Virus record (IMG/VR): IMGVR_UViG_3300037692_000185
Span: 1-46,204 of that record
Source: a virus
Lineage: Duplodnaviria > Caudoviricetes
Direction: 5' to 3' (one strand)
DNA: 46,204 bases
This document shows positions 3,223 to 42,695 of the stretch, one piece after another (the first letter of the stretch is position 1; each line of letters starts with the position of its first letter). The translations under genes and the position numbers were made by a program. The notes below the pieces were generated by a model that ran no database searches, was not told where the DNA came from, and saw nothing but the letters and a program-made list of their open reading frames with translations.

Positions 3223-3701
3223 AAGCGCTCTCGCTTATCCAGCCGTGGGCGACGCTCATCGCGATCGGCGCGAAGCGCATTGAGACGCGCAGCTGGCCGA
3301 CCGACTACCGCGGCCCACTGGCGATCCACGCGTCGAAATGGCTCGGCACCGATGGGCGTGTCGTCAGCGCGCACGTGGCCGACTGTTTGTCGTGCTGCCA
3401 TGAGGAGCCGTACCGGACGGCGCTGACACGGTCGGGGATCGAGTCGGTTCGGGACCTCCCCTCTGGCGCGCTCGTCGCCACCGTGCGCCTGGTTGGCGTG
3501 TTGCGCACCGATTCCTCGCTCCTCCGGGTGGACTTCGAGGAGCGCGAGTTCGGCGACTACTCGCCCGGCCGCTACGCTTGGCTCCTCGCCGACGTGCGTC
3601 CTCTACCGACGCCGATTCCGTTCCGGGGAATGCCTGGGCTCTGGGAGTTCCCCGACGCCGCCCTGACTGTGCAGACGTCTGCACTCCCGAAGGAGACCTG
3701 A
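3219..3701 (+). CDS. ASCH domain protein
   Basis: MKALSLIQPWATLIAIGAKRIETRSW.T.YRGPLAIHAS and C-terminal PIPFRGMPGLW are typical ASCH motifs. Confidence 0.92.
   Translation: MKALSLIQPWATLIAIGAKRIETRSWPTDYRGPLAIHASKWLGTDGRVVSAHVADCLSCCHEEPYRTALTRSGIESVRDLPSGALVATVRLVGVLRTDSSLLRVDFEEREFGDYSPGRYAWLLADVRPLPTPIPFRGMPGLWEFPDAALTVQTSALPKET
3669..3684. repeat. 16-bp palindrome GTGCAGACGTCTGCAC, copy 1
   Basis: Exact copy in the last codons of the ASCH gene, about 120 bp before terL. Confidence 0.95.
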
Positions 3702-3802
3702 TCGAGATACCACAGGGGCACGGCGCGCGAGCGACCGACAAAGCCGGGATGCTTCCGTAATCGAGCAAGTGGTAAAGCTGCTCGCGTGCCCCGCCCACGT
3801 TG

Positions 3803-5806
3803 ATGTTCACCATCCTTCCCACCGCCCCGGCCGCCCCTGAACCGCCCCCGCCTCGCGCGGTCGCCGCGCTGCGCCAGGCGTACATCGCGGGCATCCGTCC
3901 CGACACCCAACAGACCGTGTCCGAGTGGGCCGACGCGCATCGGCGGCTGCCGAAGAAGGCGGCCGCGGAGCCGGGGCCCTGGCGCACGGACCGCACGCCG
4001 TATCTGCGCGAGATTATGGACTGCCTTTCAACCACGTCCGAGGTTGAGGAGGTGGTGTTCATGAAGGCCAGCCAGGTCGGCGGCTCCGAGACTATCCTGA
4101 ATGCGCTGGGCTACATCATCGACCACGCGCCCGGGCCCGCCATCCTGGTGCAGCCGACCGTCGACCTGGCGAAGCGCTTCAGCCGGCAGCGGCTCGACCC
4201 GCTCATCACCGACACGCCGCGACTGGCGAAGAAGGTTGCCGAGGCGCGCCGCCGCGACAGCGGGAACACGATGCTGTCGAAGGAATTTCCCGGCGGCCAG
4301 TTGATCGTGACGGGCGCGAACAGCGCGGTCGGCCTGCGCTCGATGCCGGCGTTGTATGCGTTCCTCGACGAGATCGACGGCTACCCGGGCGACGTCGACG
4401 AGGAGGGGTCGCCGATCGAGCTCGTCGAGGCGCGCCAGCGCACCTTCGCGCGGCGGAAGCGCATCAAGGTTTCGACGCCGACGATCGAGTCTCGGTCGGC
4501 GATCGAGGCCGCCTATCAAGGATCCGACCAGCGGCGCTTCTACGTGCCGTGCCCGCACTGCGGCGAGATGCAGCCGCTCGTCTTCGCGCGCCTGGTGTGG
4601 ACCGATCTCCTGCTGCCGCCCGAGCAGGCCGTCTACAAATGCCGCGCGTGCGAGCAGCCCATCCAGAACCACCAGAAGACGCAGATGCTGGCCGCCGGCG
4701 CATGGCGGCCGGAACGGCCGGAGCACGTCTCGGCGAAGATCCGCGGCTATCACCTGAACGCGCTCTATGCGCCGGTCGGCTGGATGTCCTGGGGCGAGAT
4801 CGCGGTGATGTTCGTGCGGGGGCACCGCAATCCCGAGAAGCACCGCGTGTTCGTCAACACGGTGCTCGGGGAGTCGTGGAACGCGAGTGGCGGCGAGGCG
4901 CCGGCGTGGGAAGTGATTCAGCGTCGCCGCGAGACCTACGCGATCGGCTCGGTCCCGGCGGGCGTGCTGCTGCTCACGGCTGGCTGCGACGTGCAGAAGG
5001 ACCGCATCGTCTACGAGGTGGTAGGGTGGGGGCGCGGGAAGCGGTCCTGGTCGATCGACTACGGCGAGCTGCCGGGTGACACGGCGGACCTCGAGCGCGG
5101 GCCCTGGGGCCAGGTGGACGCGCTGCTTGCCCGCAGCTACGCGCACGCCGGCGGCGTCGAGATGCCGATCCGGATGCTGGCGATCGACTCCGGCTACAAC
5201 ACGCAGCACGTGTACGACTGGGCTCGCCGGTACCCGATGAACCGGGTGATCGCCGTGAAGGGCCGCGACGACGGCGGCGCGCTCCTTGGCTCGCCGAGCC
5301 CCGTCGAGGTGTCCGACCGGGGACGGAAGCTAAAACGCGGGTACCGAGTGTGGCCGGTGTGCGGCTCGATCGCGAAGTCGGAGCTGTATGGCTGGCTCCG
5401 TCTCGAGATCCTGCCGGAACGCGGCGAGCCGGCCGGCTACTGTCACTTCCCCGAGTACGCCGACGAGTACTTCCGCCAGCTCACGGCGGAGCAGCTCGTC
5501 GCGCACAAGACGGCGAAGGGGTTCGTGCGCCTGACGTGGGAGTTGATCCCGGGCCGGCAGAATCACGTCCTGGACGCGCGGGTGTATGCGCGGGCCGCGG
5601 CGGCGCTCGCGGGGCTCGATCGCTTCAACGAGTCGGACTGGAAAGCGCGCGAGCGCATGCTGGGGGTGTCCGTCGTGGTCGCCGAGCCGGCGGTCGTACC
5701 GGCGGCGCTGCCGCCCGTGGGTCCTGGCGCGGCGCCGGCGCGGACGCCTGGGGGGTGGCTGGGGCAGCGGCCACGTGGAAATTGGTTGCGTGGGCCCCGT
5801 GGCTGA
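3803..5806 (+). CDS. terL: Terminase large subunit, lambda gpA family
   Basis: TVSEWAD, RTPYLREIMD, Walker-like KASQVGGSE, FLDEIDGYP, STPT, zinc motif VPCPHCG...C..C, AGCDVQKDR, NHVLDARVYARAA. Start is 3800 (TTG) or 3803 (ATG). Confidence 0.97.
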   Translation: MFTILPTAPAAPEPPPPRAVAALRQAYIAGIRPDTQQTVSEWADAHRRLPKKAAAEPGPWRTDRTPYLREIMDCLSTTSEVEEVVFMKASQVGGSETILNALGYIIDHAPGPAILVQPTVDLAKRFSRQRLDPLITDTPRLAKKVAEARRRDSGNTMLSKEFPGGQLIVTGANSAVGLRSMPALYAFLDEIDGYPGDVDEEGSPIELVEARQRTFARRKRIKVSTPTIESRSAIEAAYQGSDQRRFYVPCPHCGEMQPLVFARLVWTDLLLPPEQAVYKCRACEQPIQNHQKTQMLAAGAWRPERPEHVSAKIRGYHLNALYAPVGWMSWGEIAVMFVRGHRNPEKHRVFVNTVLGESWNASGGEAPAWEVIQRRRETYAIGSVPAGVLLLTAGCDVQKDRIVYEVVGWGRGKRSWSIDYGELPGDTADLERGPWGQVDALLARSYAHAGGVEMPIRMLAIDSGYNTQHVYDWARRYPMNRVIAVKGRDDGGALLGSPSPVEVSDRGRKLKRGYRVWPVCGSIAKSELYGWLRLEILPERGEPAGYCHFPEYADEYFRQLTAEQLVAHKTAKGFVRLTWELIPGRQNHVLDARVYARAAAALAGLDRFNESDWKARERMLGVSVVVAEPAVVPAALPPVGPGAAPARTPGGWLGQRPRGNWLRGPRG

Positions 5807-5984
5807 CGCCCCGACGCGTGTCTCTGTGTCTGCAGCCTCGGCGCGCGAGGTATTGGCGGACGAATGCCAGAAGTGCGGCGGGGATTCGCGCGTTTTGCGC
5901 GTGCGTCGTCGTCCGTCGGTGCGGCGGCGGCGCGAGTGTGTGGCGTGCGGGTTTCGGTGGACCACGCGCGAACGAAACGACTAG
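5799..5984 (+). CDS. Small zinc-ribbon protein (NrdR N-terminal/Ogr-like), possible transcription regulator
   Basis: CQKCGGDSRV...RRRRECVACGFRWTTRE. GTG start inferred from overlap with the terL stop. Confidence 0.7.
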   Translation: MADAPTRVSVSAASAREVLADECQKCGGDSRVLRVRRRPSVRRRRECVACGFRWTTRERND

Positions 5985-6074
5985 GCACTATATATGGTGC
6001 CTTCACGGCTACGCGGCGCGGATATTCTGTGAGCGCATTCTGTGAATCGTCACCGGCGCGGAGTCTTGATGTAA

Positions 6075-8109: not shown

Positions 8110-8164
8110 TTTTTCGTCCTAAAAAAATACGAATCGGCCGCGGCTCTGCGATGCTGCGATTGTT

Positions 8165-8797: not shown

Positions 8798-8813
8798 ACC
8801 GAGGAGAGACGTA

Positions 8814-10622: not shown

Positions 10623-10701
10623 ACGTCGTCGGGTTTCGTTTCTCTCGGTTACTTGGGTTACTTGGGCCACGGCGGGCCGGTATCGCCGCAAAGGAGTCGG
10701 A

Positions 10702-11750: not shown

Positions 11751-12332
11751 ATGGCCACGAGCTACACGATCGAGTTCAACGCCGATGCCGCGCTGCAGAC
11801 GCTGCGGCAGTTCCCCGAGCGGACCACCCGGGCGGCGATGCGGTCGTTGAATCGGTCGCTGACGACCGGCCGCGCGACGCTGGCGCGGCTCATCGCGGCG
11901 GACATGGGGATCAAGGTGAGCGACGCCAAAGAGGCGATCAAGGTCCGCCAGGCAACCCCGTCGACGCTCGAGATTCGCCTGGCGGCCAGCCTGCAGCGGT
12001 TACCGTTGATCGACTTCAAGGCGCGTCAGACAGGGCGTGGCGTTTCGGCGAACACCGGCGGGGGCCGAAAGACGAACCCCCATGCGTTCATCGCAACGAT
12101 GACATCGGGTCACGTGGGCGTGTTCGCACGTACGCGGTATACACGCGGCGCGCCCGTCTGGGGCCTGCGCGACAACCCGAAGCGGGAACGGATCGATCAG
12201 CTCCACGGGGCGTCCATTGGGCGCGTGTTCGCGAAGCACCAGGCTGCGGCGATCGCGGCGATGGAAGAAGCGTTCGCGAAGAACCTCCCGCACGAGCTGC
12301 GCTTCGCGCAAACCGAGGCGCCTCGTGCCTGA
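11751..12332 (+). CDS. Minor tail protein Z-like tail completion protein
   Basis: Basic protein with RAAMRSLNR, LPLIDFKARQT, HAFIATMTSGHVGVF.R. Confidence 0.8.
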   Translation: MATSYTIEFNADAALQTLRQFPERTTRAAMRSLNRSLTTGRATLARLIAADMGIKVSDAKEAIKVRQATPSTLEIRLAASLQRLPLIDFKARQTGRGVSANTGGGRKTNPHAFIATMTSGHVGVFARTRYTRGAPVWGLRDNPKRERIDQLHGASIGRVFAKHQAAAIAAMEEAFAKNLPHELRFAQTEAPRA

Positions 12333-14235: not shown

Positions 14236-14261
14236 GGGGAGTGCAGACGTCTGCACTCCCC
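14236..14261. repeat. Palindrome copy 2, extended to a perfect 26 bp (GGGGAGTGCAGACGTCTGCACTCCCC); may double as a terminator
   Basis: Core at 14241-14256, just after the tail tube stop, followed by GTGTTTT. Confidence 0.95.
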
Positions 14262-30992: not shown

Positions 30993-30996
30993 AGTG

Positions 30997-31383
30997 ATGG
31001 CATTACGACAGGATTTCGGCGTCGACGATCAGCGGCCGTATTTTCTCGGCGAAAACAAGGTCCTGCGGTTCGAGATCTTTGGGGCCGACGACGTGACGCC
31101 GATCGATGTCGCGACCTTCGCGATGAAGTGGGCGGCCGCGCGGAAGCGTACGGGTGAGGTCCTGATCGAGAAGACTACCGCCGACGACGAGATCGAGGTC
31201 ACTGGTGTCTTCGACGTGGACCCCGTGGTCAACACGCAGCGCGTCGAGGTCACCGTGGACGACAGCGACACCGACGATCTCGCGGCGGGCGTCTACGATC
31301 ATGCGCTGAAGCGGATGGACACCGACGACGAGGGGATCCTGAGCTGGGGTGACCTGCGGTTTCGCCAGGCGGCCGCGCGCTGA
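30997..31383 (+). CDS. BppU-like/Ig-fold structural protein
   Basis: Acidic beta-rich 128 aa with VTVDDSDTDDL..GVYDH; last gene of the rightward late unit. Confidence 0.6.
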   Translation: MALRQDFGVDDQRPYFLGENKVLRFEIFGADDVTPIDVATFAMKWAAARKRTGEVLIEKTTADDEIEVTGVFDVDPVVNTQRVEVTVDDSDTDDLAAGVYDHALKRMDTDDEGILSWGDLRFRQAAAR

Positions 31384-31387
31384 TTCC

Positions 31388-31407
31388 GCGTGCAGACGTC
31401 TGCACGC
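31388..31407. repeat. Palindrome copy 3 (20-bp perfect GCGTGCAGACGTCTGCACGC)
   Basis: Core at 31390-31405, in the 40-bp gap between convergent transcription units. Confidence 0.95.
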
Positions 31408-31423
31408 AGGAGGAAACTCCCTT

Positions 31424-31756
31424 CTACCGCGTGGGTCGTCGACGCGGTTTGCGCGCACGCCGTGACGTCTCCTCCCGCGTGAGACACGTCGAGCACCGCG
31501 ACGTATGCCCGCCGAGGTCGCCGCCGCAGCGGCACAGGCCGAGCTGGCGCCTGGCCGCGATCCATTGTTGACGCCACGAGCGATCCTCGCTCGCGCACGC
31601 GGCGCAGTACCAGATCCGTCCCGGCTCTCGCCGGTGGCCGCACCGGGCACACCGCCCGGCGGCCGCGCGTCGACGCTGCAGGAGCGCCTGCGGGCTCGTG
31701 TGGTGCGCGCGGGCCGTCGCGCTCAGCTCGCCGTAGTCACCCTTGTGCTTCGCCAT
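31424..31756 (-). CDS. Basic multi-Cys zinc-finger protein
   Basis: CARC, CAAC, CRC, CSTC; ATG overlaps the upstream TGA. Confidence 0.6.
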   Translation of the reverse strand: MAKHKGDYGELSATARAHHTSPQALLQRRRAAAGRCARCGHRREPGRIWYCAACASEDRSWRQQWIAARRQLGLCRCGGDLGGHTSRCSTCLTREETSRRARKPRRRPTR

Positions 31757-32121
31757 CAGATCCGGTCTCCAGTACGCCAGCCCGCGTCGATCAGGCGCCG
31801 GGTGAGGGTCGGCATGTCGGCGTGCGGCACGCGCAGCGCCCCGCCGACCCACGCCCACCCGTGGCGGGTCGCCAGCGCCATCGACCGGAGATGGTCGAGC
31901 GCCTCGGCCGACTGCGGCGCGACGAGCATCCCGATCGCGCCATCGCGCGCGTACAGGTAGTCCACGGGGCGCTGCTCGTGGGTCGCTTGCCACGCCGCCT
32001 TGCGCGCCCGACAGACCATCGGGCGGCCGGCCACGACTCGACAGGGGCGACGGATCGCGGCGCCGCAGGTCGGGCACGGACCGATCGCCAAGATCTTGGT
32101 CTCGCGGTTTTTGTCCGTCAT
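31756..32121 (-). CDS. Hypothetical protein with zinc-ribbon motif
   Basis: CPTCGAAIRRPCR...CRAR; coupled to both neighbours. Confidence 0.65.
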   Translation of the reverse strand: MTDKNRETKILAIGPCPTCGAAIRRPCRVVAGRPMVCRARKAAWQATHEQRPVDYLYARDGAIGMLVAPQSAEALDHLRSMALATRHGWAWVGGALRVPHADMPTLTRRLIDAGWRTGDRI

Positions 32122-32807
32122 TCGGCCCTCGCGACGTCGAGGTCGTACTCGCCCGGCTGGTAGCTGACCTCGGTGAACCCCTGCTCGCCGGTGTCAGGAC
32201 GCTGCGCCCACGTGTCCGTCGTGCGCCCGCAGCCGCAGCGGAGGCATGCCTCGTGGATGATCACGCCGCCGCCGTGGCCCCACACGCCGGGGTTCTCGGC
32301 GAGCCCACCGACAAGCGCGTGTGGGCTCTGCCAGTCGTGCTCCCGGCCGTCCACGCAGTCGGGCTTTTGGGGCTGGAGGACCGCCGTATCCGTACCCGTC
32401 TCGCCGGTGAGGTCACACTCGGCCCGCACGGTGATGTAGATCGTGGCCTGCCGCGCCTCCTCGTCGTAGTCGCCATCCTGCGACCACGCCACCGCCTCCT
32501 CGAGCGCCTCCGCGAGACTGGACGCAATGATGGTCTGCTCGGCGCCGGAGTCCTCTCGAATTCTCCACGCCCTGGGCTCGTCTGATGCCGCCAGCGCGAC
32601 GCGCGCGACCTCGATGGCGGCGTCCAGCTCACGCTCACGGGCGTCGTAGGCGGCCGAGTATGCCGCGTACTCGAGGCTCTCGTCTGGCGTCGGGGTCGGC
32701 ACGGCCTCGTAGAGGGCCGCGATGTCGGGCAGGGCGTCGATGTCGGCGCGCTGCGCCAGGAGGGTGCGGAGGGTATCGGCGAGCGGGGTCGGTGTCGTCT
32801 GGGCCAT
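32118..32807 (-). CDS. Acidic hypothetical protein
   Basis: SD GAGGAG before the ATG at 32807; C-terminal HDW...HGGG...CLRCG; downstream of a strong promoter. Confidence 0.75.
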   Translation of the reverse strand: MAQTTPTPLADTLRTLLAQRADIDALPDIAALYEAVPTPTPDESLEYAAYSAAYDARERELDAAIEVARVALAASDEPRAWRIREDSGAEQTIIASSLAEALEEAVAWSQDGDYDEEARQATIYITVRAECDLTGETGTDTAVLQPQKPDCVDGREHDWQSPHALVGGLAENPGVWGHGGGVIIHEACLRCGCGRTTDTWAQRPDTGEQGFTEVSYQPGEYDLDVARAE

Positions 32808-32863
32808 CGGTCTCTCCTCGATGGAGGCGCTCGGCGGGAGTGCCGAGCGCGTCTTACACAATC

Positions 32864-32892
32864 AATATACGACTTTCAATGGGGCCGGTCAA
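32864..32892 (-). promoter_or_regulatory. Sigma70-type promoter TTGACC-17bp-TATATT
   Basis: -35 at 32892-32887 and -10 at 32869-32864, in an AT-rich gap upstream of the leftward operon. Confidence 0.8.
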
Positions 32893-32953
32893 GTCGAATC
32901 GATACCTGGACTGTCGATGTTTGAAGAAATGGCGAAAGCTGTTCAGGCCAGAA

Positions 32954-33358
32954 TCAGCGCCCGACGACGGTGTCCGCCCAGGCCAGTGGGTACGGTCCGT
33001 CCGGGAGCACGACGCACGCCGGATGCCCGCCCGGGCACGTGATGGACGCGACCGGCTCTTTCTTCGGCGCCGCCGGCGGCACCGCGTTGTCGTTCGGGTG
33101 GAAAAATCGGCGCGCGATAACGGCACCGTTGCCGCCGTGTTGGCCCGTCGCGCAGTGATAGAACACCCACACGGAGCGATCGTACACGACCGGTGAGGCG
33201 CTGAGCGTGGTCACGCCGCAGGGGCTCGGCGGCAGCTGGTGGTCCTGATACCCGTTCCCGAAGTGGGTGAAGATGTAGTCCTGGGCGCCGACGCCGGCGC
33301 CCAGGAGGACGATTCCGATGATGAGGGCGGCGATGGGGTGTGTCTGGATGCTTCGCAT
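32954..33358 (-). CDS. Secreted protein (signal peptide)
   Basis: MRSIQTHPIAALIIGIVLLGAGVGA/QD; four Cys; SD GAGG. Confidence 0.7.
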   Translation of the reverse strand: MRSIQTHPIAALIIGIVLLGAGVGAQDYIFTHFGNGYQDHQLPPSPCGVTTLSASPVVYDRSVWVFYHCATGQHGGNGAVIARRFFHPNDNAVPPAAPKKEPVASITCPGGHPACVVLPDGPYPLAWADTVVGR

Positions 33359-33401
33359 TGTCTGGCCTCGGTTCATGGGTGACCTGGTTGACTTTTAATG
33401 T

Positions 33402-33417
33402 GTGCAGACATCTGCAC
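33402..33417. repeat. Palindrome copy 4, one mismatch (GTGCAGACATCTGCAC)
   Basis: Immediately after the integrase stop codon (33420). Confidence 0.9.
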
Positions 33418-33419
33418 GC

Positions 33420-34973
33420 TCACGCGGCGCGGGGGAGGGTGTCGTAGAGGTGCCGGAGCCAGGCGAGGGTTGGGTTCCAACTCGGTGTGAGAAGGTCCAC
33501 CAACCCATTATCCGACCCTCCGACGACAGGTAAAGTATAGAACGACAAGCACGTTGAGGGGGTTCCAACTTGCCCGTCGCGGAACGTGAGCCCGGTTGGA
33601 AAAAACGCCCACTGCACGGCGATCCGGTGCTCGATCGTGTCGGCCGCGGTCCACAACGCGGCGGCGTGCTCGAGCGCGTGTTCCGCGAACGCCAGCAACC
33701 CCTCGACGTCGATCGCCTCGGTCTCGAACTCGGTGGCGTCGATGCGCGCGACGGCGACTGCCTCGCGGAGCTCGTCACGCTGCCGGCGGTACGTGACCTC
33801 GTCGATCGTCCGCGCGAACAGGAATGCCTCCTCTACCCGCGCGAGCTTCGCCTCGACGTCGCTGAGGCGCCGGCGGGCGGCCGTGTGTGCGGCGGTCGCC
33901 TGCTGCTTCGACGCCCGCCAGGTCTCGAGCACCGCGGCCCGCAACACGCGCCAGTACTCCGGCCGCGGGCGCAGCGCCTCGAGCAGCTCGAGGAACTGTT
34001 CCTCCAGCTTCCCCTTCGTGATGCTCGCGCAGCCCCGCTTGCAGTGATAGAACGGATACCGTCCGCCGCGGCGGCCGCGGGACCAGCTCCCGCTGAGCGC
34101 GGCGCCGCACGTACCGCAGCGCACGAACCGCCGCAGGGGAAAGTCCGGATGGTTCACGTGCTTGTCGGCCGCGGCGGCGCGATGCGGGCGCTCGAGCTGC
34201 GCCTGGACCTGGCCCCAGACCTCGTCGGTGACGAGCGGTGTGAAGTCGCCCTGGACGGCTGCGCCCCACGCCTGGTGGTGCACGCGTCCGGCATAGACCG
34301 ACTGGCGCAGCATCTCGTAGAGACGGCTGCTCGAGAGCGGGTGGCCGTGCTTGGTGCGCAGGCCGAGCGCGCTGATGTGCGCCAGGAGGGCGCGGCCCTT
34401 GACGCCGCGGGCGCAGAGCGCGAACGCCTCGCGCACGGCCGGTGCGCGTTCGGGATCGGGCACGAGGCTCGGGCCCCGGCGCGGGTCGGCGTTCAGATAG
34501 CCGAGCGGCGCGGGCCAGACCCAGCGGCCGCGCTCGACGGCGGCCTTCATGCCGGCCGTCACGCGCTCGGCGCGGACATCGTTGTCAAACTGCGCCATCG
34601 CCGCCAGGATGCCCTCCATGAGGCGCCCGGACGGCGAGTCGTCGATCGGTTCGGTCACCGATCGCAGCGCGATGCCGAGGCCCCGCAGGAGGCTGGCGAT
34701 GGCATGGTGGTCGGCGCTGTTGCGTGAGAATCGGGTGAGCGAGTAGACGACGACGGCGTGCAGGCGGCCGCGACTGTGGCGGCAGGACTCGAGGAGGCGT
34801 AGGAATTCGGGCCGGTCCGTCGTCTTCGCCGACTCGCCGGCGTCGACGAACACCTGGTCGATGGTGTACCCGTGCCGGGCGCAGTAGTCGCGGCAGGCTT
34901 TCTCCTGCGTCGGCAGGCTCAGGTTCTGGGCCTGCTCGGTCGTCGAGACGCGACAGTAGATGACAGCGTTCAT
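33420..34973 (-). CDS. Large serine recombinase (integrase)
   Basis: YCRVST catalytic Ser, DAGESAKTTDRP, LTRFSRN, recombinase domain APLGY, zinc ribbon CGTCG...YHC...C, coiled coil. Confidence 0.96.
   Translation of the reverse strand: MNAVIYCRVSTTEQAQNLSLPTQEKACRDYCARHGYTIDQVFVDAGESAKTTDRPEFLRLLESCRHSRGRLHAVVVYSLTRFSRNSADHHAIASLLRGLGIALRSVTEPIDDSPSGRLMEGILAAMAQFDNDVRAERVTAGMKAAVERGRWVWPAPLGYLNADPRRGPSLVPDPERAPAVREAFALCARGVKGRALLAHISALGLRTKHGHPLSSSRLYEMLRQSVYAGRVHHQAWGAAVQGDFTPLVTDEVWGQVQAQLERPHRAAAADKHVNHPDFPLRRFVRCGTCGAALSGSWSRGRRGGRYPFYHCKRGCASITKGKLEEQFLELLEALRPRPEYWRVLRAAVLETWRASKQQATAAHTAARRRLSDVEAKLARVEEAFLFARTIDEVTYRRQRDELREAVAVARIDATEFETEAIDVEGLLAFAEHALEHAAALWTAADTIEHRIAVQWAFFPTGLTFRDGQVGTPSTCLSFYTLPVVGGSDNGLVDLLTPSWNPTLAWLRHLYDTLPRAA
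33467..33506. other. Candidate attP inside the integrase 3' end
   Basis: GGGTTGG...CCAACCC inverted arms with inner CTC/GAG symmetry; includes GGTCCACCA, which resembles a tRNA 3' end. Confidence 0.45.
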
Positions 34974-34991
34974 GGACGTCGGGGTTGATTG

Positions 34992-34997
34992 ATTATA
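34992..34997 (-). promoter_or_regulatory. Perfect -10 box TATAAT upstream of the integrase
   Basis: Lies 18 nt upstream of the integrase ATG; the expected -35 (35015-35020) falls inside palindrome copy 5. Confidence 0.65.
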
Positions 34998-35006
34998 GGC
35001 CCACCG

Positions 35007-35024
35007 AGTGCAGACGTCTGCACT
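35007..35024. repeat. Palindrome copy 5 (18-bp perfect AGTGCAGACGTCTGCACT)
   Basis: Core at 35008-35023, in the intergenic region upstream of the integrase. Confidence 0.95.
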
Positions 35025-35037
35025 GGATGCTCGCGCG

Positions 35038-35280
35038 TTATCCCCACCCCTTCTCGGTCATCGCGGCCTTCCACTGGTCGCCCTCGTCGAGCAGCGCGCC
35101 GTCGTCCCGGAACACCTGGCTCCGCACCAGGTCGCCGTTGATGGTGAGCCGCAGCTCGAGGCCGAGCGGGTGCGTGACGATTACGGCCCTCGCCCGGCGG
35201 TTGTTTCCCTTCTTCAGCGCGAAGAGTTCGGCGAGCTCGCGCAGTGTGCCGTCCCACTCCGTGCGGGTGAAGATTCTCAT
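35038..35280 (-). CDS. Small hypothetical protein
   Basis: 80 aa, HPLGLELRL...SQVFR...WKAAMTEKGW; ATGA coupling. Confidence 0.75.
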   Translation of the reverse strand: MRIFTRTEWDGTLRELAELFALKKGNNRRARAVIVTHPLGLELRLTINGDLVRSQVFRDDGALLDEGDQWKAAMTEKGWG

Positions 35281-35906
35281 CGACCGTAGTAGATGTCCGT
35301 AGCTTGCTGAAGGGACTCGTCGGCCTTTCTCCAGATGTACTGCACCGCGTCCCCTGGCATCGCCTTGTAAAGCGCTCCAGTGTATTGGACCTTCCTGTCG
35401 ACGATCGGGATTCCGTATCGCTGGGCGATGTCGAGGATAGGCTCGGGGTTCCCTCCGTCCTTGAAGGAGAAAGGGATCTCACCTTTCCATATGTCGTCCG
35501 ACGCGCTGATCTTCATCGACCAAATCGTCGAGCTCGTGTGGTAATGGTCAAACACCTCTTGGAACGCCGCGAGCAGCTTCACGTCGGCGTCTGTGAGCTT
35601 CTGGTCCTTCGCGATGGCGTTCTCGGTCGCGAATGCCTGAAGCAGTTCGCTGAATCGCTGGTGGGTGACGCCTGACGCCACCGCGCCTTGAATGGCCTTC
35701 GCGGATCGATAGACGGGTTCAAATGTCGATTTCGTGATGGCTGGCGGCGCGGGGACCGGTGTACTGGCCGGCGGGGTGCTGGCCGTCGTCGTGGTGGCTT
35801 TGGGAGTTGGCCCAGAGCAGGCCGCCGCCATAAGCGAGACGGCCATCGCAACGAGCGCGGCGCGTCGGCGCCCCGGTGTTGTGACGATTGGCGGTGTCGC
35901 TTCCAT
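35277..35906 (-). CDS. Lipoprotein in the repressor operon (possible superinfection exclusion)
   Basis: RRR plus hydrophobic stretch plus lipobox AAA-C, then a Thr/Pro linker; SD GGAAGG. Confidence 0.75.
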   Translation of the reverse strand: MEATPPIVTTPGRRRAALVAMAVSLMAAACSGPTPKATTTTASTPPASTPVPAPPAITKSTFEPVYRSAKAIQGAVASGVTHQRFSELLQAFATENAIAKDQKLTDADVKLLAAFQEVFDHYHTSSTIWSMKISASDDIWKGEIPFSFKDGGNPEPILDIAQRYGIPIVDRKVQYTGALYKAMPGDAVQYIWRKADESLQQATDIYYGR

Positions 35907-35913
35907 TTATCAT

Positions 35914-36480
35914 CTACCTTCCTTCTTCGTCCGTTCCTGTTCGATCAGACGGTCCACGACTCTCTCGATCATCATCATCAGGCCAGGGCGGAGCAGTGCT
36001 AGGAGTTGGAGCTTGTCGCCCAAGGAGCGTTGCCGCGGCGCGCGAGACCTGCTCGCCGAGGTCGAAGAGGACGGCAGCGACATCGATAACATCTTCGATT
36101 GGGACGGACGGTCGTTCCGAGCGACGAGCCGGAGCTTGGACACCGGGATCCTCCTTCGTTTGTAGAAAGTGAGGATCTGACAATGGTGCCGCCCCCTGAC
36201 GGATGAGGTCATCCGCGCCTGGGAATTCGAGTGCAGCGACGAGGAGCTGAACGACGATGGGCACGGGCACGCCGTAGACGCGGCTTAGCGCGGCCAGTAA
36301 CGGCCAGCTCGGCACCCTCCCTTGTTCGATTTTATAGAGCAACGACTGGTCGACTTTCAAACCGGTCGCTTGAACAAGCGGCCGGACGCGCTGCGCGATC
36401 TGCTCCAGTGTCCGGTCTCCACGCTGTAACTGCAACCATTGACCCAACTTAGGGCTCTTGACTGGCGGCTGCTTTGCCAC
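35914..36480 (-). CDS. XRE-family immunity repressor (CI-like, no S24 peptidase domain)
   Basis: LGQWLQLQRGDRTLEQIA...VDQSLLYKIEQGRVPS..LLAALSRVYGV; divergent from the cro-like gene. Start uncertain (GTG at 36480 or 36510). Confidence 0.8.
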   Translation of the reverse strand: MAKQPPVKSPKLGQWLQLQRGDRTLEQIAQRVRPLVQATGLKVDQSLLYKIEQGRVPSWPLLAALSRVYGVPVPIVVQLLVAALEFPGADDLIRQGAAPLSDPHFLQTKEDPGVQAPARRSERPSVPIEDVIDVAAVLFDLGEQVSRAAATLLGRQAPTPSTAPPWPDDDDRESRGPSDRTGTDEEGR

Positions 36481-36540
36481 GATGGCTGGTAGCGTACTCG
36501 TGGCCGTCACTCTAATTGTCCATCTTGTCAAAAAAAACTC

Positions 36541-36579
36541 TTGACGACATGGAAAACTGAGGCGTAGTCTATTTTCCAT
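36541..36579 (+). promoter_or_regulatory. Rightward lytic promoter TTGACG-18bp-TAGTCT with overlapping inverted repeat ATGGAAAA-N15-TTTTCCAT
   Basis: AT-rich divergent gap; repeat arms at 36549-36556 and 36572-36579; a back-to-back TTGACA on the minus strand at 36531-36526. Confidence 0.7.
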
Positions 36580-36580
36580 C

Positions 36581-36844
36581 GTGGCAAATGCAAGGCCGAG
36601 AGCTCGCTGGAAGGTCGACCGGATCACCGCAGACATGGCGCTGCGGCGGTGGAACACGGCGGCGCTCGCTAGAAACGCTGGGATCTCCTACAAGACCGCG
36701 GACCGTTTCCTGCGCGGCGAAATTCAGACTCCCAAAACCGCCGGGTGTATTGCGGATGCCCTTGGGTACTCCGTGCGTCGGTACTTCTCGCATGTGGAAG
36801 CGGTTGAGTCGGAGTCGGGCGCGCGGTTTGAGAAGGCTGTGTGA
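36581..36844 (+). CDS. Cro-like HTH protein
   Basis: TAALARNAGISYKTADRFLRG...IADALG; first rightward gene after the switch. Confidence 0.82.
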   Translation: MANARPRARWKVDRITADMALRRWNTAALARNAGISYKTADRFLRGEIQTPKTAGCIADALGYSVRRYFSHVEAVESESGARFEKAV

Positions 36845-36845
36845 C

Positions 36846-37220
36846 ATGCGAACAAGTGTGCAGCATGGCTTCGGCCCGATGGAACTTGAGAGAGTTGGGA
36901 CGGCGTCCCCAACGCTCCCCAACTCAGTTGGGGATTGGCGACTGCTCGTCGCTCGCGCGCTCGGCCGAGCGGGTATCAGTCAGAAAGCGGCCGCGGCCGA
37001 TCTGGGGCTGACACCGCAGGCGCTCTCCCGACAGTTGGCCGGCATGGAGCATCTGTCGTTCTGGCGGATGTATGCGCTTTCTCCGGAGTTCTGGCGCGAG
37101 CTCGTCGCGCTCATCTGTGAATTCCACGACATCGCGATCGGGCAGACGGTTCAGGACCGCACCGATGCGGAGATCGGCCGTCTGGTGCGTGAGGCTGTGA
37201 CGAAAGCGGTGGCCCGGTGA
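36846..37220 (+). CDS. CII-like HTH protein
   Basis: ISQKAAAADLGLTPQALSRQLAG; directly after the cro-like gene. Confidence 0.7.
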   Translation: MRTSVQHGFGPMELERVGTASPTLPNSVGDWRLLVARALGRAGISQKAAAADLGLTPQALSRQLAGMEHLSFWRMYALSPEFWRELVALICEFHDIAIGQTVQDRTDAEIGRLVREAVTKAVAR

Positions 37221-37423
37221 GGGCGCCGCGCACGCTTCACCTCGCGTTGAAGACCTGCGACCTCGTGCCTATCGTCGCGCGCTCCTGGTCGCAGGACACG
37301 ATCAAGGTCCCCTGCTACGACGTCAATCGCGCTGACCGCACGTGCTTCCTGACGATGTCGCTGCCGGAGGCGCGATTGTTCCTGTCGGAGTTGCAGGCTC
37401 GTGTCGAGGCGGTGCCGCGGTGA
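37217..37423 (+). CDS. Hypothetical early protein
   Basis: GTGA-coupled 68-aa ORF. Confidence 0.55.
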   Translation: MRAPRTLHLALKTCDLVPIVARSWSQDTIKVPCYDVNRADRTCFLTMSLPEARLFLSELQARVEAVPR

Positions 37424-37638
37424 CGGATTCCCCTGTGCGCTTCGCCTGGCTCGTGCTTGATTCCTGGGCCGGTCGCACGAGGACGGAGGTCGAGGTCCTC
37501 GAGCTCGGCGCACGCGTGTTGATCCGCGCGATCGATGACACGAAGCTCGCCGGACGATGCCGCACGCTGCGGCGCGATGAGACCGCGCGGGTCCCGATCG
37601 GCGCGCTGGTGTTCCAGCCGCAGGCGGTGACGCGGTGA
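37420..37638 (+). CDS. Hypothetical early protein
   Basis: GTGA-coupled; LDSWAGRTRTEVEV. Confidence 0.6.
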   Translation: MTDSPVRFAWLVLDSWAGRTRTEVEVLELGARVLIRAIDDTKLAGRCRTLRRDETARVPIGALVFQPQAVTR

Positions 37639-37760
37639 GCGGCTGGCTCTACGTCCACGGGCCTTCGATTCTGCTCGGCGCCGTCCTGGCGGCGATCGTG
37701 TGCGGCGTCGCGTTCTTCGCGTTCGTGCGCCGCGCCGCCGATCCGAGGTGGCGCCGGTGA
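37635..37760 (+). CDS. 41-aa single-TM peptide (not in the ORF track)
   Basis: MSGWLYVHGPSILLGAVLAAIVCGVAFFAFVRRAADPRWRR; overlaps the stop and start on both sides. Confidence 0.6.
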   Translation: MSGWLYVHGPSILLGAVLAAIVCGVAFFAFVRRAADPRWRR

Positions 37761-37945
37761 TGTCACTCGAGGAGGTCCGCGCGTTGCTCGGCCCGGCGGC
37801 CGACGGGAAGTCGGACGCGGAGATCGACGCGATCCGCGAGGACGTGTTCGGGTTCGCTCGCGTGATCTTTGACTCGTGGCGGCACCGTCATCGCGCCACA
37901 GCGGCGGCGGCGGCGGCAGACAACAAGGATCGGAGGACCGCGTGA
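37760..37945 (+). CDS. Small helical protein; candidate recombination directionality factor
   Basis: MSLEEVRALLG...SDAEIDAIREDVFGFARVIFDSW; SD GAGGTG. The function is an inference. Confidence 0.55.
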   Translation: MSLEEVRALLGPAADGKSDAEIDAIREDVFGFARVIFDSWRHRHRATAAAAAADNKDRRTA

Positions 37946-38178
37946 GGTTGCTGGGGCGGATCGTCGCGTTTCCGGTGCGTCAGGAGTTTTGCTCGGCGTG
38001 CTGTCGGCCGACGTCGACGCATCGCGTGAACGGTCGCTGGGTCGGCTGCTCGCGCGACATCGTGATCGGCCGCGACGTCGCCACGTTCGACAAGTGGCTG
38101 CGCGTCGCGGCGCTGCAGCCGCGCGTGGTGAAGGTGCAGCCGTTCGGGATCGGAGCGGGTGATGGACCCCGGCGCTGA
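37942..38178 (+). CDS. Hypothetical early protein
   Basis: GTGA-coupled, SD GGAGG, CxxC...H...C. Confidence 0.5.
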   Translation: MRLLGRIVAFPVRQEFCSACCRPTSTHRVNGRWVGCSRDIVIGRDVATFDKWLRVAALQPRVVKVQPFGIGAGDGPRR

Positions 38179-38578
38179 CCTCCTCGCGCTGCTCGGCGTG
38201 CTCGAGACGCTGAAGAAGCAGCACCGTGCGGGACTGTCGCCCACCTTTGGGCAGGTCGAGGACCTGTTCCAGTACGCCGACCAGGTGCGCGGCGGGTCTC
38301 CGATCCCGGGCTGGGGCGCCACGGCGCCGGACGTCGAGCGCGACCAGCGTGACGTGCTCGAGGCGCTGCGCGCGGCGCCCGACCAGGCCGTCGCGCGCGA
38401 GCTCGAGATGCAGGCGCTCGCCCGACGACTCCAGGAAGAGAACGCGGCGCTGCGCGCGCGGCTCCACGGCGTCTCGGACCAGCTCGCACTCGTCGTGAGG
38501 AATTGCTCGTCGGCGCCTGATGTGCCGGCGCAGGGGTTCTGCGCCCGGCCGGACACGATCTCTCTGGGGAGGCTGTGA
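38162..38578 (+). CDS. Hypothetical protein with coiled coil
   Basis: LARRLQEENAALRARL. Confidence 0.6.
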   Translation: MDPGADLLALLGVLETLKKQHRAGLSPTFGQVEDLFQYADQVRGGSPIPGWGATAPDVERDQRDVLEALRAAPDQAVARELEMQALARRLQEENAALRARLHGVSDQLALVVRNCSSAPDVPAQGFCARPDTISLGRL

Positions 38579-38724
38579 TGACTGGAGAGCATGACGAGCT
38601 GGACGATCCGATGGCGACGATGGCGGCGGCGATCTGCATTGGCCTGCTGGTCGGCGCGGGACTGCTCGCGCTGATCGTGGTGGCGATCCAGTGGGTGCGT
38701 GCCGGGTTGGTGATCAATGGCTGA
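38578..38724 (+). CDS. 48-aa single-TM peptide (not in the ORF track)
   Basis: TGATG coupling; AAAICIGLLVGAGLLALIVVAI. Confidence 0.55.
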   Translation: MTGEHDELDDPMATMAAAICIGLLVGAGLLALIVVAIQWVRAGLVING

Positions 38725-39034
38725 CCAGAAGCTCTGCACGACAGACGGCCGGTCCGTCGAGGACGTGCGGGCCGGCCAGACGAACCGGACGGGTCAGCAC
38801 GACGGTTACATCGTGCTGTGTCCAGACGAGCGCGCGAAGGGCTTTGTGCGGCCCTACCGCGACAGCTACCGGCACGGCGCCTGCGGGACGGTCACGACGA
38901 TGGGCCGTGCGCTCTCTGAGACATACGCCCGCGACCCCACGTTCTACGGCGCAACGTTCTGCTGCCACTGTAATCGACACCTGCCAGTCGCGGAGTTCGT
39001 CTGGACGGCTGACGGTCAGGTGGTGGGGTCGTGA
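38717..39034 (+). CDS. Conserved phage zinc-binding hypothetical protein
   Basis: ERAKGFVRP.R.SY.H..CG...ETYARDP.FYGATFC..C. Confidence 0.75.
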   Translation: MADQKLCTTDGRSVEDVRAGQTNRTGQHDGYIVLCPDERAKGFVRPYRDSYRHGACGTVTTMGRALSETYARDPTFYGATFCCHCNRHLPVAEFVWTADGQVVGS

Positions 39035-39288
39035 AGAACGAGCACATCGTCTGGGCCTACGCCGAGCGGGAAGACGGGGAAGGCTCGGTGGTCATCCTGG
39101 GTATCACGGACGCCGGGCTCGACTTGCTGCGGGCCGGTGAGGGCACCGCGAAGAAGACGCTGCTCGCGAATCCGCCCGGCCGTGGGTTCGCGAACGTGAC
39201 GCAGCTCGTGATCTTCCACGAGAAGGACAAGGCCACGCTGAAGCGACGGCTGCGTGAGTCCGGACTCGTCGTCTCAGAGGTGAATTGA
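39031..39288 (+). CDS. Hypothetical early protein
   Basis: GTGA-coupled 85-aa ORF. Confidence 0.6.
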   Translation: MKNEHIVWAYAEREDGEGSVVILGITDAGLDLLRAGEGTAKKTLLANPPGRGFANVTQLVIFHEKDKATLKRRLRESGLVVSEVN

Positions 39289-39328
39289 CTGGATTCCCAG
39301 AAACCGGCGCTCAAAGGATGGTGACGTG

Positions 39329-39604
39329 ATGGATGAACACTTCCGGCTACTCGGCTTCGCGGTTCGCGACGTGGTGACTGGCTTCACCGGCGTGGTCACG
39401 TCGATCAGTTTCGATCTGTACGGGTGCGTGCAGGCGATTGTGTCGCCCGGGTGTGACGAGAAAGGGAAATTGGACGAGGGCCGCTGGTTCGATACCAAGC
39501 GCCTTGTCGCGACGAGTGATGAGCCGGTGATGGCCGTGCCGTCGTTCGTCGCTGTGCCCGGCGGCCAGTCGTTGCCGACGTTTCCGTCAAAACCAACGCG
39601 GTGA
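39329..39604 (+). CDS. Conserved phage hypothetical protein (small beta fold)
   Basis: VRDVVTGFTGVVTSISFDLYGC...WFDTKRL. Confidence 0.7.
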   Translation: MDEHFRLLGFAVRDVVTGFTGVVTSISFDLYGCVQAIVSPGCDEKGKLDEGRWFDTKRLVATSDEPVMAVPSFVAVPGGQSLPTFPSKPTR

Positions 39605-39621
39605 ACTCGGGACGTGATCTT

Positions 39622-40113
39622 ATGGCGAAACGAAGTGTCAGCCGCGCGAACGGGCGGGCGTCTGGTCCCGCCGTTCAGTCCTCCTCTTTCGACAGTAGCT
39701 GCGTCTCAGTCGTCCGGGCTCAGGCGTGTGGCAGGTTGGCGGCGCTCGACGCTGAGCGCGCCGACCTGCAGGCGCTGCTCGCGGGCCTCGATCGGTTGTG
39801 CGGCCCGCCGGCAGCGGCGGATCGTCCACGGCCGCCTTCTCGTGTCGTCGTCGACGCCGGCGGGCCGATTCCAGCGCTGACCACGAGGCCGGTGACGTCC
39901 GACGACTCCCTGCCCTCGTGGGTGAAGCTCGACGCGATCCGCGCCGCGCTGAAGGAGGGCCCGGCGCCGGTGTGCTAGTTCGTGGCGAAGACGAAGCTGT
40001 CGCGCTACCAGGTGAAGCTCCTGCTCGACCTTGGGTTCATCGTGGCGACCGGCCGGACGAGTGCACGCCGGCTGTCGCTGCCAGGCGCGCCGACGCCGAA
40101 GGAGGAGCCCTGA
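39622..40113 (+). pseudogene. Coiled-coil plus winged-helix protein interrupted by an in-frame TAG at 39976-39978
   Basis: The frame continues after TAG as FVAKTKLSRYQVKLLLDLGFIVATGRTSARRLSLPGAPTPKEEP, completing a wHTH-like pattern. Confidence 0.6.
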
Positions 40114-40361
40114 CGCGGCGGGCGCGCTCGAGCGCGAAGAGGGCGCCCGGCTCCAGCGCATCGCCGCCGCGGCGCCACCGGCGTCGAGCTTCGATGGGCG
40201 GCTGCAGCGGTGGCGCGATGAGCGCGAGCAGCTCGAGACGGTCTGGGACGGCTCGATGAAGACGCCCCTGACGGATGGCCACGGGCTGATCGGATCGTCG
40301 CTGGCGCCGGGGTCCGGGCTGTTGCTGCGGTAACCAGCTTTCGGGTGAGGAGGTTGAAGCC

Positions 40362-40604
40362 ATGGACGTACTTTCGGTGTTCGTCGAGCGGTACCCGATC
40401 CTGATCGTTGTCGTCGCGGGCGCCGTGCTGGCAGCCATCACGTGGCTCCTGGACCTGCGCGCGTCCCGTGCCGAGCGGCGGGAGATTGCGGCGAGGGCGC
40501 GGCGCGCCGCGGACCTCCGGCGCCGGCTGGCCGACGATAGCGGCCAGCGCACTCGGGCCCGACGCGTTGTTGAGGCCGACCGCCGGCTGTGGGACCGCCG
40601 ATGA
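40362..40604 (+). CDS. Single-TM protein with basic tail
   Basis: SD GAGGAGG; ILIVVVAGAVLAAITWLL. Confidence 0.7.
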   Translation: MDVLSVFVERYPILIVVVAGAVLAAITWLLDLRASRAERREIAARARRAADLRRRLADDSGQRTRARRVVEADRRLWDRR

Positions 40605-40813
40605 GCGTCCTCCGCCGCCTGCGCTGTCGGCTGAATGGTGGTCATCTCCCTGTCAGGGTGGCTGGGGCCGGGACGCTGACCGAGCGGTGCTTCGCCTGCG
40701 GTGCCATCCTGACGCCCGGGTGGGACTGGAGCGAAGCGGTCCGCCGCTTCCAGGCCCGTCGGGTGCGCGCCCGGCGGCGTCGTGCCGTGCGGCGCCTGCG
40801 GCGGGTCGCATGA
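40601..40813 (+). CDS. Small basic zinc-binding hypothetical protein
   Basis: C....GH...CFACG; ATGA-coupled. Confidence 0.55.
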   Translation: MSVLRRLRCRLNGGHLPVRVAGAGTLTERCFACGAILTPGWDWSEAVRRFQARRVRARRRRAVRRLRRVA

Positions 40814-41058
40814 GCGTCCACGTCACGCCGGCCCTGGCTGAACGGCTGCGCGCGATGGTGCTCGCCCACTGCGGCGGCCAGGTGCGTGTGTTCACGTGCG
40901 AGTTCCGGCCCGGTGGGCGCACGCACGGGGTCGGCGTGGCTTCGGATTTGTGGTGTGTCAACTGCGGTCACTCGCGCATGTGGCACGACGTCGCGATCGC
41001 GGCGGCGCTGGTCGTCGAGCGCGAGGCGCGGCCGCCTCTTCTCCGTGAGGTGTCATGA
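40810..41058 (+). CDS. Small Cys/His hypothetical protein
   Basis: C..F...CVNCGH...H; ATGA-coupled. Confidence 0.55.
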   Translation: MSVHVTPALAERLRAMVLAHCGGQVRVFTCEFRPGGRTHGVGVASDLWCVNCGHSRMWHDVAIAAALVVEREARPPLLREVS

Positions 41059-42695
41059 ACTACCAGGACCTCCCGCTCGACCGGCTCGTGCCGTCGCCAC
41101 TCAACCCGCGCAAGCACTTCGACGAGGGCAAGCTCCGCGAGCTCGCGCAGAGCATCACCGGGGCGGGCATGATCGAGCCGGTCATCGTGCGGCCGAACGG
41201 GTCGCCCGGCACCTTCGAGATTGTCGCGGGGGCCCGCCGCTACCGCGCCGCGCAGCTGGCGCAGCTCGAGACCGTGCCGGCGATCGTCCGTGAGCTCACC
41301 GACGCCCAGGTCCTCGAGATCATGGTCGTCGAGAACAACCAGCGCGAGGACGTCAACCCCCTCGAAGAGGGTGACGGGTTCGCGCGCCTGCTGAAGCTCG
41401 GCTACGACCTCGACCGGCTCGCCGAGCGGATCGGGCGGTCGAAGAAGTACATCTACGACCGCATCAAGCTCCTCGAGCTGGAGCCAACCGCACGGCGGTT
41501 GTTGCTCGACGGCCGGATGTCGGCCGGGCATGGCATCCTGCTCGCCCGCTTGAAGCCCGAGGACCAGGAGCGCGCGCTCGACCCGCACAATGGCGGCGTC
41601 TTTCGACGCGAGAAAGCGTACGAGGACCTCACAGACGACGACGAGGACGCCTACACCGGCGTCGTCGCGGGGTCGGTGCGGGAGTTTCAGAGTTGGCTCG
41701 CCAGCCACGTGCGGTTCGATGTGGCGCACGCCGCCAAGGCCGCCCCGCTCGACTTCGGCGACGTCGCCGAGCGCGTCGGGGCCGCCGCGGCGAAGCCTGG
41801 GCGCGGGAAGAAGGTCATCCCGATCACGTTCAGCCACGTCGCGCCGGAAGACACGCGTGACGATACCGAGCGCACCTACGGGTCGTCCGCGTTCCGGCTC
41901 GCCGACGGCCAGATGCACGGGGCACGGTATCGCGACGGGGCCGCCGTGGCGCCCGTCTGTGACTATTCCGTCCTGGGCGTGGTCGTCGCCGGCGATCGCT
42001 ACGGCCAGGCGTTCGAGGTCTGCATCGCGCGGGATCGGTGCGAGGTGCACTGGAAGAAGGAGATCGCTCAGAAGCGGAAGACGCAGAAGCTCCGCGAGAG
42101 CGGAAAGGTGGTCGAGGCCGACAAGGCGGAGAAGCGGCAGCAGGAGACCTACGAGTCCAGGTGGAAGCGCGAGAACGAGGAGCGCAAGCGTAGCGAGCGC
42201 GCGTGGGATGCGGTTCGTGACCGCGCCGTGACGCGGTTGGCTGAGGCGCTGAGTAAGGCCGGGGCGACGCCGATGATCGTCGAGGCGGCCTTTAAGGCGG
42301 CCATTCCACACCAGGATGCCGCCGATGCGAAGCTGTTGGCGAAACTCCTCGGGCCGGTGACCGGCAAGAACGTCGTCGTCGCGATTCTGTTCGCGGCCAT
42401 CCTCGACGACGCGGCCCGAGAGATTGGCGGGTTCTCGAAGATCGCTAAGGTTTACGGGGTCGACCTCACCGACCTGCGCAAGGAATACGAGGCCGCGCTG
42501 ACGCCGCCGGCGAAGGCGCCAGCTGCCATGATGGCAACACCGAAGAAAGCAAGAAAGACGCGCGCCGTGCGCCGGCAGCCGGGCGAGAGCAATGTCGAGC
42601 GCCTCAAGACCGAGATCGCGGCACGGGAGGCAAAGGCGCGCGGAAGGAAGCCCACGGGTAAGCCGCAGACGTCTGCACGAAAGAAGAAGCGGTGA
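41055..42695 (+). CDS. parB: ParB/RepB/Spo0J family protein with long C-terminal extension
   Basis: NPRKHFD, ELAQSI...GMIEPVIVRP, IVAGARRYRAA, ENNQREDVNPLEE, HTH LAERIGRSKKYIYDRIKLL. Confidence 0.93.
   Translation: MNYQDLPLDRLVPSPLNPRKHFDEGKLRELAQSITGAGMIEPVIVRPNGSPGTFEIVAGARRYRAAQLAQLETVPAIVRELTDAQVLEIMVVENNQREDVNPLEEGDGFARLLKLGYDLDRLAERIGRSKKYIYDRIKLLELEPTARRLLLDGRMSAGHGILLARLKPEDQERALDPHNGGVFRREKAYEDLTDDDEDAYTGVVAGSVREFQSWLASHVRFDVAHAAKAAPLDFGDVAERVGAAAAKPGRGKKVIPITFSHVAPEDTRDDTERTYGSSAFRLADGQMHGARYRDGAAVAPVCDYSVLGVVVAGDRYGQAFEVCIARDRCEVHWKKEIAQKRKTQKLRESGKVVEADKAEKRQQETYESRWKRENEERKRSERAWDAVRDRAVTRLAEALSKAGATPMIVEAAFKAAIPHQDAADAKLLAKLLGPVTGKNVVVAILFAAILDDAAREIGGFSKIAKVYGVDLTDLRKEYEAALTPPAKAPAAMMATPKKARKTRAVRRQPGESNVERLKTEIAAREAKARGRKPTGKPQTSARKKKR
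42663..42678. repeat. Palindrome copy 6, degenerate (ccGCAGACGTCTGCAC, 14/16)
   Basis: Inside the last codons of the ParB-family gene (PQTSAR). Confidence 0.85.

Follow-up and report, generated by a model that had tools for sequence, protein, structure and literature searches.

A dispersed 16-bp palindrome and an orphan ParB, its probable reader, in unrelated integrating phages

The phage record IMGVR_UViG_3300037692_000185 (46,204 bases, analysed in its entirety and referred to below as the window) carries six copies of a 16-bp palindrome with GTGCAG-type arms around a central ACGT, together with the gene of an orphan ParB protein. The question raised by this locus is which protein reads the palindrome and to what end. 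A first-pass annotation of the same DNA had proposed that the phage encodes its own ParB with a new recognition sequence, acting as a sliding-clamp regulator or genome organiser. The comparisons presented here show that palindrome and protein occur together in integrating phages that are unrelated, vary in concert and are limited to prophage-sized blocks. Very probably, the palindrome is the site that the phage's own orphan ParB recognises, because the two co-occur, the site co-varies with the recognition helix of the protein, the word is not a host repeat and no other window protein is widely shared among its carriers.

The palindrome and its company in phage and host genomes

The sites and the gene are arranged in the window as follows (no strand is assigned to the palindromes):
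3669 to 3684, no strand, exact palindrome, among the final codons of the ASCH gene (in frame, VQTSA), with terL about 118 bp further on
14241 to 14256, no strand, exact palindrome, 20 bp past the tail-tube stop codon, with flanks that lengthen the inverted repeat to an 11-bp stem
31390 to 31405, no strand, exact palindrome, 6 bp past the last rightward late gene, at the point where the late and leftward units converge
33402 to 33417, no strand, palindrome with one mismatch, 2 bp past the integrase stop codon
35008 to 35023, no strand, exact palindrome, 14 bp past the stop codon of a gene of 80 amino acids (aa) and 34 bp before the integrase start
41055 to 42695, plus strand, orphan ParB of 546 aa with ParB_N and HTH_ParB domains
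42663 to 42678, no strand, palindrome matching at 14 of 16 positions (two mismatches), among the final codons of parB (in frame, PQTSA), a placement found also in close relatives

No further copy with up to three mismatches is present in the whole window. Chance would supply a mean of 0.41 copies, six were reached in none of 100 shuffles, and only 1.7e-5 exact copies are expected, which confirms the first-pass statement that these copies lie far beyond chance. Their placement at module boundaries was also as described, with the refinement that none lies more than 20 bp from a stop codon; two are part of a gene's final codons and are read in frame there.

The palindrome is not private to the window phage, being common to many unrelated phages, one of which is cultured. 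An estimate from 12 of the 64 parts of the viral collection puts the number of stored stretches with the exact 16-mer at about 680; for two control palindromes of equal length the numbers were 2 and 15. In 50 motif-bearing records (all those that reach 27 kb among loci L001-L096, out of 127 loci), ParB_N was found in open frames of 508-920 aa in 41 cases, versus 0 of 34 size-matched records with control palindromes, where a single weak match fell below the cut-off. The suggested co-occurrence of motif and ParB thus extends to other phages. Records with a ParB hold 2-8 copies of the palindrome (median 5) and those without it 1-5 (median 1). A tyrosine integrase is encoded by 39 of the 50, and ParA (PF13614) by none. 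Eleven typed multi-site phages, for which ParB was one selection criterion, belong to three terminase families and include forms with and without a tail sheath. Besides ParB, no window protein was matched by tblastn in more than four of these eleven, and the alternative binders that had been named earlier (the repressor, the GapR-like and the RHH protein of the window) were matched in none, in searches where small proteins may escape detection.

The cultured carrier is the Variovorax phage VarioGold, whose ParB has the same helix type and whose genome holds six sites at up to two mismatches, four of them in coding sequence and none in the cI-cro interval. Its parB lies in a leftward unit that ends in a MerR-type gene adjoining the integrase. 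The main text of the VarioGold paper names the ParB domain and is silent on a palindrome, an inverted repeat or an operator (PMC9658991). A variant of the palindrome, with C at position 6, is found in the Acidovorax phage Aval.

In prokaryote genomes (596 Gb), about 470 stretches contain the palindrome, versus 139 matches expected under even base use. When ten host genomes were searched whole, seven showed blocks of 3-10 sites in 22-39 kb with at most one site elsewhere; among the remaining three, one had two sites 1.9 kb apart and two had a single site. A long ParB was located inside, or within 3 kb of, a site block in all five host genomes checked. Since host-genome sites fall mostly in prophage-sized blocks, the palindrome is a prophage feature and not the abundant host repeat that had been considered as an alternative. 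The named hosts are mostly Betaproteobacteria, with some Acidobacteria. A plasmid search returned nine records, and the one inspected is a circular phage with an integrase.

Two arrangements stand apart. In an Acidoferrum genome (G080), contig C220 (6246-39384) has five sites and a long ParB was found just on contig C504, which has ten; a clamp acting in trans or a split assembly are both possible. Cyanobacterial contigs (L215/L216 and L191/L192) carry exact sites in pairs, separated by about 1.9 kb, and the 6-kb flanks gave no ParB match.

Site and recognition helix

The relation between the palindrome and the helix-turn-helix (HTH) of the protein was examined in 44 records picked by ParB similarity and not by motif, leaving aside G132, whose parB lies beyond the fetched part, and G025, which lacks a full HTH. 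A site at up to two mismatches is present in 16 of the 26 records with tyrosine at residue 134 (in 11 of 26 outside parB) versus 0 of the 18 with another residue there, the co-variation that had been proposed as a check. In the same 26 Tyr134 records, 60 control palindromes matched a mean of 0.58 records, with a maximum of 4. Within the full-length subfamily, the GTGCAG form is found at 8 of 32 Tyr134 loci and the TCCAG form at none, whereas 4 of 24 Trp134 loci have the TCCAG form and none the GTGCAG form (p=0.002 for the Tyr/Trp split); the other 20 of the 24 Trp134 loci, on partial contigs, show neither. The protein tails mirror this division: QTSA is found in the tail of 6 of 10 Tyr proteins, QTSG in that of 9 of 79 Trp proteins.

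The TCCAG word has mixed carriers and is therefore not exclusive to Trp-helix proteins: ParB_N occurs in 12 of 39 records with the TCCAG 14-mer, and four ParBs at most 2.5 kb away from it lack the Trp helix. A CCCCAG-armed palindrome was also tried for the Trp-helix kin and was rejected, having a single match in the viral collection, while TCCAG fits four loci.

Beyond these two words, at least five copies of another palindrome are found in 6 of the 18 non-Tyr phages, and two non-Tyr phages with similar helices (TQRFVQ) hold similar palindromes. In GC-rich records the null of the de novo palindrome search is weak and GC-rich false positives arise, and only non-Tyr families with at least five well-matched copies were counted. 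Phage G006 (L333-L334) carries two palindrome families, of 7 and 14 copies, and a single ParB; a different protein may be the reader of the second family. In G020 (L361-L363), a CACGTG-centred palindrome like the host parS lies at 12295, 20272 and 34463, and the ParB helix is a different one.

The parB gene itself holds the site by two routes, either in the gene tail, as in the window, or, in another branch, at ADVCT just ahead of the conserved cysteines. The in-gene ADVC copy uses the rare alanine codon GCA in 14 of 18 cases versus 2.1 expected; the non-Tyr rows, which include close Phe variants, use it in 3 of 7 versus 0.7.

Several observations weigh against this pairing. The helix rule is one-way, 10 of the 26 Tyr134 records having no site at up to two mismatches, and many close kin hold just the copy within parB. 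G127 has Tyr134 and a different palindrome. ParB is missing from 9 of the 50 motif-bearing records, and no ParB could be detected in three records that have 3-5 sites and are 81-95% complete. On the tree the motif label is scattered, with 15 changes and 48 of 500 shuffles as low (not significantly clustered), which indicates that site number is labile. Moreover, the p-values are overstated because the records are related.

The ParB protein and its relatives

By its domains and boxes for cytidine triphosphate (CTP), the window ParB is a member of the ParB/RepB/Spo0J CTPase family. It matches PF02195 and PF17762 and passes TIGR00180 (145.6 bits, cut-off 58.45). ParB_N covers residues 4-95, including GARRYR and ENNQRE, and the HTH covers residues 98-174, with the recognition helix RSKKYIYDRIKL. 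The CTP-box residues R19, G59, R61, R62, E93, N94 and R97 are invariant across 12 aligned rows. In the middle domain C302, C323, C329 and H332 are invariant and would form a metal site; a 50-residue helix and a helical C-terminal domain follow. No ParA family was found among the 66 window open reading frames scanned, and the ParA-binding motif is absent from the first 80 residues in 96 of 96 kin. The first-pass picture of an orphan ParB with an HTH, GARRYR and no ParA is therefore correct.

The statement that GARRYR is also the motif of KorB was accurate (PMC11790492), but the special tie to KorB that had been drawn from it does not hold. GARR is a minority variant in the kin (18 of 96 close and 8 of 146 wider), so that GARRYR is not diagnostic and no sign of KorB descent, and among solved sequences Spo0J and ParB come closest (E=1e-39), with KorB far weaker (E=1e-11). 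In a Myxococcus ParB, the same Glu-to-Ala change was reported to slow hydrolysis and widen spreading (10.1101/2021.05.05.442810), and KorB carries GARRYR yet still hydrolyses CTP (PMC11790492). The phosphate box (window 41229-41246) often reads GECR, neither GERR nor GARR, in the full-length subfamily (45 of 96).

An alignment-based monomer model (pLDDT 88.7; a single-sequence fold, at 47, was set aside) predicts N-terminal 220 residues resembling both KorB (Z 13.5, root-mean-square deviation 12.4 over 151 residues) and Spo0J (Z 12.0, deviation 3.2 over 166 residues). The C-terminal part gave long-helix matches alone, which have no bearing on novelty, the fold search having tested mainly the N-terminal part.

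Among characterised systems, KorB with the OB operators of RK2 shares the ParB-family CTPase fold and HTH, the GARRYR box and palindromic sites away from the gene (PMC11790492). It differs in its weak sequence likeness and in its operator, whose sequence as printed in that paper is another. In addition, the window phage has no IncC/ParA-type gene, tblastn found no KorA-like partner shared with the eleven multi-site phages, its ParB has an extra C-terminal part of 370 aa, and the carriers are integrating phages. The chromosomal Spo0J/ParB-parS and Noc-NBS pairs likewise combine a 16-bp palindrome, a central ACGT and a specificity tied to the HTH region (PMC7383237). Compared with chromosomal parS, the phage palindrome has different arms, the recognition helix (SxxY[IV]YxRxKL) differs, ParA is lacking and the pair is phage-borne. 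Noc resembles the window ParB in having no ParA partner, and Noc sites are dispersed; the window ParB is below the cut-off of the Noc model TIGR04285 (149 of 315 bits).

BisD-bisS of ICEclc also involves a long ParB hybrid of an integrating element that spreads over the element from its own palindromes. BisD has two sites, a ParA and the partner BisC, whereas the phages considered here have 5-8 dispersed sites and no such partners were found (PMC12409273). HerB/YfjB of the F plasmid is again an orphan long ParB, built of a CTP domain, an HTH and additional C-terminal domains and produced soon after DNA entry; it is described as binding the host chromosome without a consensus site, in contrast to the window ParB, whose predicted site is confined to phage DNA (PMC13370423). 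The match to PRK13832, used for the HerB comparison, is far below the cut-off (34 of 640 bits). The PRTRC ParB (TIGR03734) is likewise long; the window ParB is below its cut-off (121.5 of 278.6 bits, N-terminal 176 aa covered), two wider kin match this model into the Cys-containing region, and the window has no PRTRC gene neighbourhood. As for ParABS partition, neither a cognate ParA nor a ParA-binding peptide was found, and the sites do not form a centromere-like cluster near par genes.

In text searches that left subscription journals largely uncovered, the exact 16-mer was not found and its 12-base core matched unrelated work only; the literature retrieved on phage and prophage ParB sites concerned KorB, BisD, HerB and phage parABS, with no account of this system. 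A fold survey describes orphan ParBs as common on prophages and mostly unexplained, its main text being without palindromes (PMC12704722). This case contributes a single word common to integrating phages that are unrelated, a sister variant that follows the helix, and a cultured phage that carries the sites.

What the pair may be for

There is about an even chance that the main role of the pair is that of a CTP-dependent clamp, loaded at the palindrome and coating phage DNA after infection or induction. The gene layout points to early, CI-repressed expression, and because parB lies in early units beside the repressor, ParB is likely made on infection or induction. The orphan ParB would then close on the palindrome as a CTP-dependent clamp and slide outward, the binding of CTP, the closure and the sliding being those expected of the family, and five or six spread sites would let the clamp coat the entire phage DNA. 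The purpose is the least certain step: it may be mainly physical, the phage DNA being marked or organised as self and the Cys/His middle domain offered to a partner. Local effects on transcription would be a side use, exerted through the copy in parB and the copy over the likely integrase promoter of the window.

Site placement, based on our own gene calls for 73 sites in 17 records, can be viewed in this light. Intergenic sites number 34 versus 7.8 expected, the other 39 being inside genes; a stop codon lies within 40 bp of 31 sites versus 7.8 expected, and the gaps are tandem in 30 cases and divergent in 1. Over 14 records, the largest inter-site gaps are smaller than random (combined p=8e-4). 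One copy is often within parB, with the others dispersed over the genome, and in close relatives the positions are partly kept and partly turned over, the integrase of relative L630 having no site. This suggests that the number and spread of sites weigh more than their exact place, and that they settle where the cost is least. Less easily accommodated by coating are the 19 of 73 sites with a start codon no more than 40 bp away (8.1 expected), a position suited to regulation, the spacing of the window's own sites, no more even than random (p=0.44), and the operator-like position of site 35008. The latter is 10 bp upstream of a perfect minus-strand TATAAT and covers the expected -35 position of the likely integrase promoter, a promoter read from sequence that a consensus scan did not report and whose -35 match is poor. 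Site 35008 is a plausible candidate for a local operator, as an exception among the sites.

The same pair could have long-range control of transcription as its main output, by repression as in KorB or by activation as in BisD, with a partner that halts the sliding clamp at promoters. This is possible, though less likely than coating. KorB exerts CTP-dependent repression from an operator at a distance of 1.5 kb (PMC11790492), and BisD, after loading at two parS-like sites, accumulates at promoters bound by BisC (PMC12409273); distant operators need not adjoin promoters, many phages have a copy in or just before parB, and both the intergenic excess and site 35008 agree with such control. However, tblastn (by which small proteins may be missed) revealed no KorA- or BisC-like partner common to the eleven multi-site phages, and -10-like boxes show no peak around 232 distinct exact sites (11 of 232, a flat profile). 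The VarioGold cI-cro interval is siteless, most of that phage's sites are coding, and positions turn over among close relatives. A general operator role at module boundaries or in integration, which the first-pass annotation had considered, is not supported, given the flat profile and the siteless L630 integrase. Its proposal of an own ParB with a new recognition sequence stands on co-occurrence and helix co-variation without the general operator role, and of regulator and organiser, the organiser half fits better than the repressor half.

It is unlikely that the pair serves the inheritance or positioning of excised or not-yet-integrated circles through host ParA or SMC. Such a service would fit the closeness to solved chromosomal ParBs, the TIGR00180 score and the recruitment of Smc by chromosomal ParB, but it sits badly with the lack of ParA in the 50 motif-bearing records and of the ParA-binding motif in the kin, with the integration of most carriers (39 of 50) and with dispersed sites that form no centromere-like cluster. 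Very improbable is another reader of the palindrome (a host factor, phage repressor or recombinase), or a terminator- or REP-like hairpin, with parB linked by hitch-hiking. The position of sites after stop codons, a few longer stems or T-runs (14241; VarioGold 5756) and the nine records without ParB can be cited for it. Yet 72 of 121 exact sites have no extra pair and just 8 a T-run, and symmetric double changes occur in just 4 of 51 imperfect sites; with stem extension and symmetric change both so rare, recognition by a protein fits better than hairpin function. Another reader is further opposed by the three terminase families of the carriers, by the mostly clustered host stretches and by base changes that track those of the ParB helix. 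At VarioGold 5756-5771 (L722), after the capsid gene, the palindrome tops a longer hairpin with a T-run next to it and likely doubles as a terminator.

A wider form of the clamp-coating proposal is speculative and rather doubtful. The pair would be a portable self-marking module, shared by temperate, integrating phages that differ in head and tail type and come from at least two host phyla, in which one gene encodes a clamp for a 16-bp word written 5-8 times in the genome and once in the gene. The clamp would paint only word-bearing DNA after entry or induction, and the Cys/His domain would act there, by shielding from host defence, by setting up a compartment for phage DNA or by affecting co-resident phages, whether these share the word or lack it. 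Helix variants would correspond to prophage compatibility groups, and site-bearing phages without parB would borrow a neighbour's clamp.

Through the pairing, one widespread orphan-ParB clade gains a precise predicted DNA target and a helix-tracking variant, and the inducible, cultured VarioGold, with six sites, makes binding, spreading and function testable together. If the coating model is true, CTP clamps act in the lytic or establishment phase of phages, unrelated to partition. A ParB-site pair with natural specificity variants would be useful for studying the evolution of HTH specificity, and possibly as an orthogonal DNA label.

The window otherwise shows a temperate-phage layout, with lambda-type terminase and portal, a tail-tube gene, a serine integrase and an HTH repressor, and an early unit of parB, DUF5131, an HD phosphatase and a replication initiator. 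The names CI and Cro below follow from layout:
33420 to 34973, minus strand, large serine recombinase (integrase), flanked by two palindrome sites
35914 to 36657, minus strand, CI-like HTH repressor, start uncertain
36635 to 36844, small Cro-like open reading frame of the rightward early unit, divergent from the repressor, with parB downstream

The terS-terL interval (window 659-3701) holds five genes, for a GapR-like DNA-binding protein, an AAA+ ATPase, an unknown protein, a DNA-repair-like nuclease (phrog_631/5429) and the ASCH protein, of which L630 kept ASCH alone. No clear integration junction was seen among the contigs compared with window 30500-43000. One full-length relative of the window ParB is labelled Vicinamibacterales, a hint that points to the host group of the window phage and is no demonstration of it. 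An 8-base terminal repeat (window 1-8 = 46197-46204) and a terS start at 85 indicate that the record probably opens at a cos site. Near the right end (window 46111-46126) there is a parS-like site of host type, with 2 mismatches to the chromosomal consensus (0 of 100 shuffles), seen in just 2 other fetched phages. In the motif-bearing phage G004 (L354:11822-13252), a reverse transcriptase gene lies directly upstream of parB.

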